A DNA stretch of 64,000 bases from a virus. The notes under the pieces were generated by a model that saw nothing but the letters and a program-made list of their open reading frames with translations, did not search any database and had not been told where the DNA came from. The position numbers were made by a program, and so were the translations under genes. The stretch lies in UHGV virus genome UHGV-0287696; one strand, given 5' to 3'. Below, piece by piece: positions 54,943 through 58,288 of the stretch. Numbering within the stretch: position 1 is the first letter of the stretch; each line of letters starts with the position of its first letter.

Positions 54943-55680
54943 ATGAGAGAATTATTAGACGATATCTTTACCAACACCAGTTTAGAACTTTCTTCTACGG
55001 TGGTTAACGAACTAATAAAACAATCGCAACCTGCTAAGTTAATCGATGCTGGAACAATTAAACCTGAAGATTATCCAGACAGTGACGTTATCGACGGTAT
55101 GATTGACGAATACGTGATAGGTAGTTACGCCAACCGCGTCTTCTTTGTTTTTAATACCGAAACCAGTGTCATGTTAATCTATAAGTTGATCAGTGACGCC
55201 GAACTTGAAGTAATGGCTGACCACATTCGTCTCCTTGCGAACACGCCTACTAGTATCGCTGATGTGCTTATTGGGAACGGTTGGCCTTTACCACCACTAT
55301 TCTCTTACTTCCCTCTGTTTAGAAATGGGATAGGGTTACTCCGAAATGCAGAAAACCTTCCCGATAACGTCGAGTTATCACTGCTTGGACCTGGCATCGA
55401 TCTTTGTCCATTAGAAGACGAGGGCACGCTATATGGTTTACGCATTTATGTTTCTGTGTTAGAGGGATACCGTATCATCGAGTTAATTGCATCAGACTTA
55501 GCAAAACAGATCCCTGATGTAGAAACGATTTCTAAAGCCACCCACCTGGTTGAGATTAACCCGGACGATCCCTTATTGAAATATCACGAGAAAATTGATC
55601 TTCGTAAAATCGCCGCGATGAGAGGGTGGGGTTGTGCTGAGATTACGAAGGACTGTCTGCTGTTAATTAAAACCGCGTAA
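54943..55680 (+). CDS. member of a tandem four-gene paralog family (C-terminal GW...QLLF motif)
   Basis: 245 aa; C-terminus IAAMRGWGCAEITKDCLLLIKTA is a divergent form of the motif seen in the next three genes. Confidence 0.55.
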   Translation: MRELLDDIFTNTSLELSSTVVNELIKQSQPAKLIDAGTIKPEDYPDSDVIDGMIDEYVIGSYANRVFFVFNTETSVMLIYKLISDAELEVMADHIRLLANTPTSIADVLIGNGWPLPPLFSYFPLFRNGIGLLRNAENLPDNVELSLLGPGIDLCPLEDEGTLYGLRIYVSVLEGYRIIELIASDLAKQIPDVETISKATHLVEINPDDPLLKYHEKIDLRKIAAMRGWGCAEITKDCLLLIKTA

Positions 55681-55710
55681 TTAAGAAAACCGAAAAAAGG
55701 AGAATATACC

Positions 55711-56265
55711 ATGTTTCAAACTGAACTGAAAAATGAAATTATCCAAACCCTTGAAAAGGGCGTAGGCGAACATTTCTTTGTCCGTCCTTATACCGTACTG
55801 ACCAATACCATTATTCAGCCAGGTGCGATGATAGTAGGGGTAAGTGTACAAGCTGTGGAGGAAACCCCACTGCGTCGCAACATCACACGTAAAACCCATA
55901 TCCCGTTTAGAACGGGTTTTACAGATTACTTTCAGAGCTTACTGAAAGATAGCGTTTGGAAAACAGGCAGCTTCTTCCACGAAGGGAAGACTTCCACGCT
56001 GGTTTATAAAGAGAACACCAAGTATCTGGTCGATTTTCTCTTAGCGCGTCAGTATACTTTCTTTCCAACCCCTACTGACTGCACCCCAGACAACCCAGGT
56101 AAGTTATTAAACCAAAGCGAAGCCGAGGCACTCTTTACAAGACTTCGGAATGAGCAGTGCGATGTTGACGACTGGGAAACATTGATCGCGGTCGCTAAAG
56201 CCCACGGTTGGTATACCGTACGTAAACTCGGTCAGCAGCTGTTGTTCTTAGCTTACCCTGCTTAA
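55711..56265 (+). CDS. member of a tandem four-gene paralog family
   Basis: 184 aa; C-terminus AKAHGWYTVRKLGQQLLFLAYPA. Confidence 0.6.
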   Translation: MFQTELKNEIIQTLEKGVGEHFFVRPYTVLTNTIIQPGAMIVGVSVQAVEETPLRRNITRKTHIPFRTGFTDYFQSLLKDSVWKTGSFFHEGKTSTLVYKENTKYLVDFLLARQYTFFPTPTDCTPDNPGKLLNQSEAEALFTRLRNEQCDVDDWETLIAVAKAHGWYTVRKLGQQLLFLAYPA

Positions 56266-56295
56266 GTAACGAAAAACCCCTAAAGGAGAGTAAAA

Positions 56296-57447
56296 ATGCG
56301 AAATATTATTTCTAAACCAGGACATGTCAAAATCCTAAAAGAACTGATGGACAGATGCTATAATCGGACTTGGTCGCTACCAAGCTTAACCATCGAGTCT
56401 TCATTACAACGTGAGTTGTTTGGTTATAACTTGGGCTGCTGTGTACTTACTGAATACAATGAGATTATCGCGCCTGTCGATGTCTGTACTTACGATGAAG
56501 AAATTGAAGGTTACAAGTTCGCGGTTTACACAAATTGTGGACTAAATTACCGTAAACTCGTTGTTAGGGAAAAGAGTAGCAGCCGGAAGATTATGTTTAA
56601 GGTCTTCCCAAGTGGTAAAGTCAGTAATTTATGTTTTCAGCTTGAGAAAGTGCCCTTTCACGGTGCGGACATTTTAACTAAACCAGAACTCGCGTTATTA
56701 AGCGGGTTAATTGGTTTTGAAGCAAAAACCATCAAAGTTGAGCAGGAACTTACACGAAACGATTTCGGCTCAACTTGGTACGAAAGTTTCTTCCGCTACG
56801 AAATGTTAAGTGATAAAGCTATCAAACTCACTTACCGTTCTACCGACGACATCGTTTACCACATTTTAATTAGCGGCGAACCCCACCAGATTATTGAAGA
56901 CGAAGGAGAAAAATCCGTGCGTACCTTAAAAGATGAATTAACTGATTTTGTTAACAAAATTGATAACGTGGGTATCAGTGAATTATTATTCCCGATTCAA
57001 CATCCAGAGTTGCTTGACGAGAAATCTGAAAACGTGGTTATGGGTGTGCATTTACTTCCTGACCATCTTGCTATCTACCGTACACTTTCTAAGAACCAAC
57101 TTAAAGTGTGGTGTCTGTTAAAAGACCTTTTAACAGAGGCGGGGTGGTCGTGTAGTGTAGATGTTAACTGTGAAGGAGTTGCGTTCTTCATCACAATAGG
57201 CAATCGTAGTTTTTCTGTCGATTTACCTACTCGCAGCTATTACGATTTCTTCCCGACCGCAGAAGGACGTACTGAAAAAGAACCCGCATTACTGCTCAGT
57301 GCTGAGGAGTCCAATGCGTTAATGGCGAAGCTAAAGGCGAAAGACGAGAAGTTGGATGCTTTACATCTACCTATAATCGGAAAAGATTACGGTTGGGCTG
57401 ACGTGCAAAAATACGGCAGTCAGCTGTTGTTTGTTGCTGACCTTTAA
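56296..57447 (+). CDS. member of a tandem four-gene paralog family
   Basis: 383 aa; C-terminus DYGWADVQKYGSQLLFVADL. Confidence 0.6.
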   Translation: MRNIISKPGHVKILKELMDRCYNRTWSLPSLTIESSLQRELFGYNLGCCVLTEYNEIIAPVDVCTYDEEIEGYKFAVYTNCGLNYRKLVVREKSSSRKIMFKVFPSGKVSNLCFQLEKVPFHGADILTKPELALLSGLIGFEAKTIKVEQELTRNDFGSTWYESFFRYEMLSDKAIKLTYRSTDDIVYHILISGEPHQIIEDEGEKSVRTLKDELTDFVNKIDNVGISELLFPIQHPELLDEKSENVVMGVHLLPDHLAIYRTLSKNQLKVWCLLKDLLTEAGWSCSVDVNCEGVAFFITIGNRSFSVDLPTRSYYDFFPTAEGRTEKEPALLLSAEESNALMAKLKAKDEKLDALHLPIIGKDYGWADVQKYGSQLLFVADL

Positions 57448-57473
57448 TAAGTGAAAATACACTTTCTCTAACT

Positions 57474-57499
57474 GCCGCGCTTTAGTCGCGGCTTTTGTT
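57474..57499 (+). terminator. rho-independent terminator
   Basis: hairpin gccgcgc-tttag-tcgcggc followed by ttttgtt. Confidence 0.6.
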
Positions 57500-57514
57500 A
57501 AGAAGGAAATAGAA

Positions 57515-58288
57515 ATGAAAGTCCATTTAGACGATATCTTTAAAACCGAACCGTATATGATCGAAGGTTCGCTAACATCACTACTATTTGCCGATAGATT
57601 AGATCGTACGCTGCAATTACAATCGGTCGAATCTGCACCCGTTGATGATGTAGAGCGTTACGAGCGCATCAACCATACGCGGGGTGAGTATCGTCGCTAT
57701 AAGCCAAATTCACTAAACATCAAGCTTTGGCAAGTGGGCACAGGTAAGGTATTAACTTATCGCGCTGTTGGTAGTTATTACATTCAACAAGCCAAAGAGT
57801 GGTTAGAAAAAGTTAAAGAACTGAACTTCGATCTACTGAGCAAAAAACTGCGCGATCATAACGCCAGTTTGCCGATACGTAATTATTTCTCCACGATTGA
57901 AAATAGTCGATGCTTCGTTTCACGTGAAACCACGATATTACCTGGGGCTGATGTTCAGACGACACTAAAAGATGTGGTTGTGAAGAAAATCTTTCATGAA
58001 TCTGAACACGTTGGATTTCGTATCTATTTAACGCACAAGAGACCATTTACCGTGATTCACGTTGTTACCGCACCCGAAGGCTCAGCGGTTATTCGAGAAC
58101 TTCCTGATGCTCGAGACCGTTGCCCTAATGAGCCGCTTTATTTAATGTCAGGAACAAAATCAACCGCGTTGATGTCCCGTTACAGCATGTTAGATGTTGT
58201 TGACGCTGCTATGAAACTGGGTTGGAAAGAAGTGCAGCAACATGGTAAACAATTGCTGTTTATTGCCGATGTAAAACTTAATCAATAG
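57515..58288 (+). CDS. member of a tandem four-gene paralog family
   Basis: 257 aa; C-terminus MKLGWKEVQQHGKQLLFIADV. Confidence 0.6.
   Translation: MKVHLDDIFKTEPYMIEGSLTSLLFADRLDRTLQLQSVESAPVDDVERYERINHTRGEYRRYKPNSLNIKLWQVGTGKVLTYRAVGSYYIQQAKEWLEKVKELNFDLLSKKLRDHNASLPIRNYFSTIENSRCFVSRETTILPGADVQTTLKDVVVKKIFHESEHVGFRIYLTHKRPFTVIHVVTAPEGSAVIRELPDARDRCPNEPLYLMSGTKSTALMSRYSMLDVVDAAMKLGWKEVQQHGKQLLFIADVKLNQ

Follow-up and report, generated by a model that had tools for sequence, protein, structure and literature searches.

Results

Four tandem genes in a jumbo phage of Enterobacterales

To the DNA analysed here, a stretch of 64,000 nucleotides (nt) from the virus genome UHGV-0287696 that we refer to in its whole length as the window, belongs an array of four genes, A245, B184, C383 and D257, three of which end in a common domain. 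The source is a jumbo phage of Enterobacterales that has not been cultured and is related to SPN3US (Chimalliviridae-type). An earlier sequence-only reading had described head-to-tail genes of 245, 184, 383 and 257 amino acids (aa) at this position, and all four are present on the + strand at the following coordinates, given together with their C-terminal regions.

54943..55680, + strand: A245, first gene of the array, encoding an acidic orphan protein of 245 aa (open reading frame, ORF; 85 homologues at 47-96% identity)
55498..55677, + strand: tail of A245, residues 186-245, IPDVETIS...NPDDPLL...RGWGCAEITKDCLLLIKTA, which in alignments looks like a degenerate form of the domain
55711..56265, + strand: B184, second gene, encoding a body of about 110 aa and the C-terminal domain (ORF, BLASTP and hidden Markov model, HMM)
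56047..56262, + strand: domain of B184, residues 113-184 (HMM, E 1e-26 to 1e-35)
56296..57447, + strand: C383, third gene, encoding a body built of alpha+beta units (about 310 aa) and the C-terminal domain
57232..57444, + strand: domain of C383, residues 313-383 (HMM, E about 1e-34)
57515..58288, + strand: D257, fourth gene, with the canonical domain (orthologues at 74-95% identity)
58085..58273, + strand: domain of D257, residues 191-253 (HMM; tail matches in the PHROG database to phrog_26772 and phrog_33648)

The genes A245 and B184, B184 and C383, and C383 and D257 are separated by 30, 30 and 67 nt, respectively, and a Shine-Dalgarno-like sequence precedes every ORF of the array. Because each of these genes, and likewise the downstream gene E192 described below, has many length-conserved orthologues in public assemblies, we consider all of them to be real genes.

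Three of the proteins share a C-terminal domain of 65-70 amino acids

In a six-frame translation of the whole window, the pattern GW..V...G.QLLF[IVL]A was found three times, at the ends of B184, C383 and D257 only. Pairwise BLASTP comparisons, with E-values calculated for a nominal database size of 1e5, aligned B184 with C383 over 108 residues (E 7e-10), C383 with D257 over 65 residues (E 7e-8), and B184 with D257 over 64 residues (E 4e-4), and an hhalign comparison of the D and C orthologue families gave a probability of 97% and an E-value of 1e-11. As the similarity covers 64-108 residues, the shared element is a domain of 65-70 aa and not a motif of about 20 aa. The C-terminal motif previously ascribed to all four proteins is significant for B184, C383 and D257, where it forms the end of this longer element and is present in homologues from other phages; in A245 only a degenerate form can be seen, and its similarity is borderline.

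The consensus of the domain reads (I/L)PDxxDR(T/S)xN(D/E)PxYLMS, a helix, a variable linker, a second helix and GWxxVxxxGxQLLF(I/V)A, so that a second conserved block lies upstream of the motif noted before; this block is clearest in D257 (LPDARDRCPNEPLYLMS), which carries the canonical motif LPDARDRCPNEPLYLMS...GWKEVQQHGKQLLFIAD. Within the family both prolines of PD...(D/E)P, the G-W pair and the glycine of the terminal hairpin are invariant, and the L, V and Q are nearly so. The N-terminal polar motif is relaxed to PTPTDCTPDNP in B184 and to PTAEGRTEKEP in C383, and the domain of D257 is the copy nearest to the single-copy versions found elsewhere (42% identity to those of Phobos, CR5 and Derbicus). 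A profile of 70 positions built for the domain matches B184 (E about 1e-26 to 1e-35), C383 (about 1e-24 to 1e-35) and D257 (about 1e-24 to 1e-27).

Predicted fold and charge of the domain

Structure prediction, a check proposed with the sequence-only reading, returned a confident fold for the domain in B184. With an alignment of 38 sequences that included distant members of the domain family, AlphaFold2 modelled B184 with a mean predicted local distance difference test score (pLDDT) of 79 and the domain with values of 84-96. The model places a strand at residues 130-133, helices at 135-147 and 155-164, and two strands at 169-173 and 176-180 that form a beta-hairpin. The predicted topology of the domain is thus beta-alpha-alpha-beta-beta, preceded by the polar loop PDxxDR(T/S)xN(D/E)P, and the helices are joined by a linker whose length differs among family members, from about 8 to 45 residues. 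On the basis of this model the fold may at most be called winged-helix-like. Predicted from only 12 close orthologues, the body of C383 was moderately modelled (pLDDT about 75). The net charge of the domain has a median of 0 and a range of -7 to +3, and the median isoelectric point is 6.6, a neutral character that argues against a classical DNA-binding domain.

Distribution of the domain family

The search for homologues, likewise proposed with the sequence-only reading, showed that the domain recurs in other jumbo phages, including in stand-alone proteins. An HMM of the B184, C383 and D257 domains was run with HMMER exhaustively against 1.84 billion representative proteins, every one of which was covered, and 48 cluster representatives were obtained at E<=1e-3; three of the 48 were long repetitive proteins and were judged to be false. 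The true matches are of three kinds: in proteins of 184-412 aa the domain lies at the very C-terminal end, proteins of 72-160 aa contain essentially nothing but the domain, and in a rare third group, represented by P0089 and PhiEaH1 gp105, it is N-terminal.

With tblastn against the phage collection, all matches were to jumbo phages with genomes of 218-305 kb, namely SPN3US-like phages of Salmonella, Escherichia and Proteus, the Derbicus-, Machina- and Iapetus-viruses of Erwinia, the Cronobacter phage CR5, 300-kb phages of Klebsiella and Serratia, and the Shewanella phage SXP01. A scan of IMG/VR with a back-translated DNA pattern yielded 19 loci, of which 12 were confirmed and seven were chance matches; 11 of the confirmed loci lie on contigs of 220-270 kb, and the twelfth, with a three-gene array, on a partial contig of 107 kb. 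In PHROG, the C-terminal ends of phrog_26772, phrog_33648, phrog_24489 and phrog_18480, all of them labelled 'unknown function', match the domain, the matches to the tails of the window proteins being found for C383 and D257. Nothing above noise was obtained with the domain profile in sequence searches of Pfam, NCBIfam, PADLOC and the PDB, and a literature search retrieved no paper on SPN3US gp175, its relatives or the domain family; the 'gp175' that appears in SPN3US papers denotes the phiKZ protease or the PhiPA3 RecA and was set aside as a different protein. The domain is undescribed and narrowly distributed, being restricted to jumbo phages.

In a complete 222-kb relative, the domain is confined to three proteins of the array, and the idea that it is a tag carried by other proteins of the genome was rejected for want of further carriers.

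By membership, B184, C383 and D257 belong with SPN3US gp175, Phobos gp176, Machina gp185-187 and the four PHROG families, all of which are uncharacterised. The domain was recognised at the C-terminus of the named phage proteins (HMM E 1e-10 to 1e-25), and their genes occupy the same slot: in the SPN3US-like genomes, the domain gene or genes are the first on the + strand past a divergently transcribed baseplate-assembly gene, as is the case for SPN3US gp175 (412 aa), Phobos gp176 (319 aa) and Machina gp185. The copy number differs, with one copy in SPN3US, Phobos, CR5 and Derbicus and three copies plus a degenerate fourth in the window phage, and the N-terminal bodies of the SPN3US, Phobos and Machina type have no detectable relation to those of the window. 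In the Erwinia phage Machina (L011, 4485-6541), the genes for gp185, gp186 and gp187 stand in tandem at the syntenic site, as an independent array of three in which gp185 is a canonical copy and the other two have relaxed motifs, mirroring the relation of D257 to B184 and C383. A stand-alone domain copy of 113 aa is encoded inside a tRNA gene cluster of the 300-kb Klebsiella phage LPKP23 (L012, 4944-5285), a context that is unrelated to the slot beside the baseplate gene.

The N-terminal bodies are orphans and are exchanged between close relatives

That the N-terminal parts diverge, as had been proposed, is borne out by profile comparisons of body against body, which were non-significant save for a weak collinear signal between A245 and D257 (P=0.005); apart from this A/D collinearity, homology among the bodies was rejected. 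Also rejected as unsupported was the idea that the bodies consist of repeated copies of half a domain (helix-GW-hairpin), the only candidate being residues 271-285 of C383 (P=0.0055). About 30 bodies gave no family match in Pfam, NCBIfam, PADLOC or the PDB, and sequence searches of the same databases with the five proteins of the locus and 26 full-length family members returned nothing above noise; structural relatives of the bodies were likewise not found. In PADLOC there was only a chance-level match, to DpdF (E 0.018), in a survey that included no search aimed at anti-defence catalogues. The description of the bodies as 'effector domains' thus finds no backing in known families.

In all three orthologue sets, the tails are better conserved than the bodies, with mean pairwise identities of 81 versus 60% for C383, 91 versus 79% for D257 and 72 versus 59% for A245. 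Mosaicism was studied by comparing the window with five related loci in which the flanking tail genes and the downstream genes have 91-100% protein identity. The identities of the array proteins to these five relatives are as follows.

A245: 72-96%, or gene absent
B184: 43-99%
C383: 42-98%
D257: 81-96%

D257 is the most conserved gene of the array, and the gene combinations are reshuffled: in L007, B184 is 89% identical and C383 42%, and in L005 the values are 47% for B184 and 73% for C383. At the DNA level, homology to L007 and L003 ends at the end of B184 (56255) and is back at 57094-57116, about 100 nt before the sequence encoding the C383 domain, and homology to L005 and L008 ends at the start of B184 (55716) and is back at 56119-56158, inside the sequence encoding the B184 domain. 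In L003 the A245 gene is cleanly missing, position 54888 being joined to 55698. Body DNA is therefore swapped between otherwise near-identical phages, with breaks at gene starts or ends and with homology resuming in or before the domain-coding region, and the locus is a recombination hot spot. The proposal of a common C-terminal module on unrelated N-terminal parts holds in this form: the domain is autonomous and better conserved than the bodies, and the bodies are swapped.

A245 is probably a distant relative of D257

A245 was not detected by any of the domain profile HMMs, even at E<10, and its tail, GWGCAEITKDCLLLIKTA, has just the GW and LL-x-I in common with the domain. When a diverse alignment of the A family, made of A245 orthologues at 47-96% identity, was compared with the domain by hhalign, the last 25 residues aligned in register with a probability of 42% (P=2.6e-4), and comparison of the A family with the D family gave 169 collinear columns (P=2.9e-4). 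A relaxed pattern, GW-x8-xLL[FLIVM][IVL], which was fitted post hoc, matches nothing in the window but the four tails, with 0.035 matches expected. A245 and D257 both have an N-terminal LDDIF and an internal G-x-RIY motif, and the tail of A245 is apparently short by about 12 residues, or one helix, between the landmarks '(D/E)P-L' and 'GW'. Judged from these alignments, A245 is probably an old, distant, full-length paralogue of D257 with a decayed and shortened domain. The gene is absent from some close relatives, precisely so in L003.

Genomic setting of the array

The array is found near three giant virion proteins (1401-1727 aa), a homologue of SPN3US gp171, a DUF1471/BhsA-like gene and a baseplate-assembly gene, in a gene order that is also that of SPN3US, of the Erwinia phages Phobos and Machina, and of others. 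The gp171 homologue is a neighbouring protein of 420 aa; SPN3US gp171 is an essential tail-associated protein, and the virion and essential proteins that PMC5105663 discusses do not include SPN3US gp175. Orthologues of the array genes are annotated as plain hypothetical proteins, and the neighbouring genes are marked as virion-structural. The array sits in an accessory, probably non-structural locus. Further features at or next to the array are the following.

54786..54860, + strand: conserved non-coding element upstream of the array, G5-N3-G5 ... ACGGAG-(covarying hairpin)-CGACA
57474..57500, + strand: intrinsic-terminator-like hairpin GCCGCG-CTTTAGT-CGCGGC with a T run, between C383 and D257 (hairpin itself at 57474-57492; consensus match only)
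58301..58879, + strand: E192, conserved acidic protein of 192 aa, phrog_20879
58884-58903: terminator-like hairpin 3' of E192

E192 starts 12 nt past the end of D257, with which it is likely to be co-transcribed; it has no copy of the domain and is also the downstream neighbour of the domain gene in SPN3US. The element at 54786-54860 is intergenic, between the baseplate gene (53657-54622, - strand) and A245, and consists of GGGGGTAGGGGG, about 27 nt, and then ACGGAG-GTATAC-GGA-GTATAC-CGACA. The same layout is found at the same site in SPN3US, Machina, Derbicus, CR5 and Phobos, without the hairpin in Derbicus, CR5 and Phobos, and the hairpin stem covaries (GGTATAC/GTATACC, GGTATCC/GGATACC and GGTAGC/GCTACC). 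The element is single-copy in the window and in the complete 222-kb relative, had no Rfam match, and was not found near the stand-alone domain genes of other phages. We regard it as a candidate site of regulation, either of the array operon or of the divergently transcribed baseplate operon.

A megablast search of the array against the phage collection gave no match, and the nearest isolates show about 74% nucleotide identity, in the neighbouring structural genes only. Array-bearing contigs of 220-227 kb are common in assemblies of Salmonella, E. coli and Shigella isolates. Near-identical genomes of about 222 kb have been deposited as circular 'plasmids' (NZ_CP173450.1 and NZ_CP134650.1), the hosts of these records being E. 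coli strain 98232, from urine in Egypt, and Enterobacter ludwigii. The 'plasmid' records and the isolate contigs suggest a carrier state or pseudolysogeny, or a phage that accompanies cultures as a passenger.

Directly downstream of the array, five successive genes at 59010-61212 (+ strand) encode small proteins of 153, 130, 161, 136 and 129 aa with N-termini that by eye are hydrophobic and signal-peptide-like; they are 66% to 100% identical to those of close relatives, one relative's copy carries the Pfam YfjT family, and from their sequences they are probably exported accessory proteins. Between the tail and baseplate genes, 53241-53468 (- strand) encodes a 75-aa homologue of the DUF1471 / YdgH-BhsA stress-protein family that is conserved in place in SPN3US, Machina and Phobos. 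The segment 32433-34662 (- strand) encodes a pair of neighbouring radical-SAM proteins, of 440 and 307 aa, each of which matches phrog_1802; the second has a weak QueE-like match, a hint at a nucleotide- or DNA-modification pathway.

Discussion

A proposed constant module with exchangeable bodies

The autonomous C-terminal domain, the hypervariable and exchanged orphan bodies, the variable copy number and the position in an accessory block together point to a constant module with exchangeable parts. We tentatively favour, somewhat short of regarding it as probable, a protein-protein docking module that carries exchangeable variable bodies at a locus under diversifying pressure. Docking is favoured since the domain is not basic, carries a conserved polar loop that could well form a binding surface, and also exists alone; protein binding, a common partner and any role in host interaction are inferences. 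Docking to one host target and a role in host takeover or anti-defence, as suggested by the sequence-only reading, would be plausible. The domain would tether different bodies to one common partner of the phage or the host, and in other jumbo phages the stand-alone versions would sit on this partner with no body attached. The array would have originated by old tandem duplication, with D257 retaining the ancestral canonical domain, B184 and C383 having relaxed polar motifs, and A245 having largely lost the domain. Conserved domain-coding DNA at the 3' ends, together with the gene starts, might then serve as homology anchors that let co-circulating phages exchange whole bodies and gain or lose whole genes, and the outcome would be an allele-like diversity of the kind typical of loci in conflict with the host.

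A more specific version is possible and rather doubtful as a whole: the array would be a cassette-type conflict locus of enterobacterial nucleus-forming jumbo phages, in which the undescribed docking domain attaches to one conserved hub, of phage or host origin, and displays orphan domains that can be interchanged, such as inhibitors of host defences or decoys for them, with the DNA of the domain as the recombination anchor.

Several observations weigh against the docking proposal. The domains of B184, C383 and D257 are only 30-38% identical to one another, which is no nearer than to the domains of other phages, so the duplications must be old, and the polar DR(T/S)xN(D/E) motif is lost in B184 and C383. 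Partners that have diverged or are different would explain this no less well than a single shared target, and 'one common target' may be true only of the canonical copies. The bodies show no fold that can be recognised as that of an enzyme or inhibitor, so that to call them 'effectors' is no more than an assumption. There are weak structural and profile hints towards winged-helix proteins, some of which bind DNA. An AlphaFold2 run of C383 with orthologues alone left residues 314-383 unfolded (pLDDT <50); because the domain folded confidently once distant family members were added, this low score reflected the depth of the alignment and not disorder.

Other explanations of the domain

The hints towards winged-helix proteins lead to an explanation that we consider unlikely, in which a winged-helix-like, nucleic-acid-binding domain would make the array proteins phage regulators or DNA- or RNA-associated factors, with variable bodies that sense or recruit and with the upstream element as a possible site of action. 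The predicted order of beta-alpha-alpha-beta-beta is that of a winged helix minus the first helix, and two helices followed by a beta-hairpin 'wing', with a ...G-K-Q-hydrophobic strand pattern, are also what the model shares with TBPIP/Hop2 (PF07106), Stn1 and Nse1; sub-threshold Pfam matches to the winged-helix domains of TBPIP/Hop2 and Mnd1 were obtained (E 0.007-0.09), and a conserved, genome-unique non-coding element does lie upstream of the array in several genera. However, no significant sequence or structure match of the domain to winged-helix domains was found, its long and variable inter-helix linker is unlike a tight helix-turn-helix, it is neutral to acidic and lacks the first helix, and the upstream element is absent near the stand-alone domain genes of other phages. 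The position of the array allows a different explanation, improbable in our judgement to a similar degree, by which a self-association or assembly domain would belong to low-copy accessory factors of the tail or baseplate, such as adaptors or chaperones for variable host-recognition parts, and the variation of the bodies would track the host range. In every SPN3US-like genome the array directly adjoins the block of baseplate and tail genes, one neighbour is the homologue of the tail-associated gp171, and allele-like mosaic variation this strong is also typical of receptor-binding modules. Yet the array lies on the strand opposite to this block and forms a separate operon together with the small secreted proteins and an SMC-like gene; its homologues carry the annotation hypothetical, not virion protein, in phages whose neighbouring genes are marked virion-structural; the real tail-fibre genes are 40 kb off in the window; and stand-alone copies occur in unrelated contexts (in the tRNA cluster of Klebsiella phage LPKP23 and beside phoH in PhiEaH1).

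The conserved terminal position on otherwise unrelated proteins would also be expected of a sorting tag that directs its carriers to the phage nucleus or shell, to the membrane, or to the capsid for injection, and the phage does belong to the SPN3US group of nucleus-forming phages, for which there is no known import signal (bioRxiv 10.1101/2024.03.27.586873). We give this explanation less weight still, as only three array proteins of the complete 222-kb relative carry the domain, which is therefore not a general tag, as a folded domain of 65-70 aa that also exists alone makes little sense as a pure address label, and as the HMMER and tblastn searches did not find it in Pseudomonas phages of the phiKZ type. 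Very unlikely, finally, is that the C-terminal QLLF is a sliding-clamp-binding peptide that recruits the proteins to the DNA clamp. A near-terminal Q-L-L-F is conserved in most members and resembles the bacterial clamp-binding consensus QL[SD]LF, but the spacing differs (QLLF[IVL], in full QLLF[IVL][AS], versus QLxLF), the residues are in a predicted beta-strand of a folded domain (pLDDT about 90) and not in a flexible tail, and several members have QVLL, QILL, TFLL or MLML instead.

Comparison with known systems and implications

For a docking module with exchangeable bodies, the closest analogue by its logic may be the internal-protein (IP) locus of T-even phages and, more generally, modular effector families. 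The T-even IP loci consist of tandem hyperplastic genes that have only a short targeting sequence in common and include the anti-restriction member IPI*; this constant sequence, a peptide of about 10 aa at the N-terminus that targets the proteins to the capsid, is cleaved off by the prohead protease. Both systems combine a tandem array and a short constant part with a remainder that is unrelated and highly variable among close relatives, and both can by analogy be regarded as non-essential accessory loci. In the window, by contrast, the constant part is a folded C-terminal domain that also exists alone, and the N-termini have no common motif except the LDDIF of A245 and D257. With modular effectors such as polymorphic toxins and the cargo of secretion systems that recognise C-terminal signals, the array has in common a constant module joined to exchangeable domains and breakpoints at the module boundary. 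It differs from them in that toxin, immunity, secretion and trafficking domains are lacking and no immunity-like gene is adjacent; for polymorphic toxins and effector-immunity systems in particular, neither the bodies of the window nor the 26 family members had a match in Pfam, NCBIfam or PADLOC.

Our findings define a new domain family that is restricted to a small set of giant phages, in which most genes are orphans, and the asymmetry of conservation marks the constant 'handle' in each protein. Should its function prove to be mundane, there would still be a defined domain, a recombination hot spot that it marks, and a case in which AlphaFold2 missed a real domain because the alignment was shallow. 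Alleles are naturally swapped among phages that are identical otherwise, which offers ready-made experiments on how body variants relate to host range or to sensitivity to defence systems. If the domain docks to a single partner, the identity of this partner would assign a role to the whole set of orphan proteins and might also uncover a new hub in the interaction of nucleus-forming phages with their hosts.

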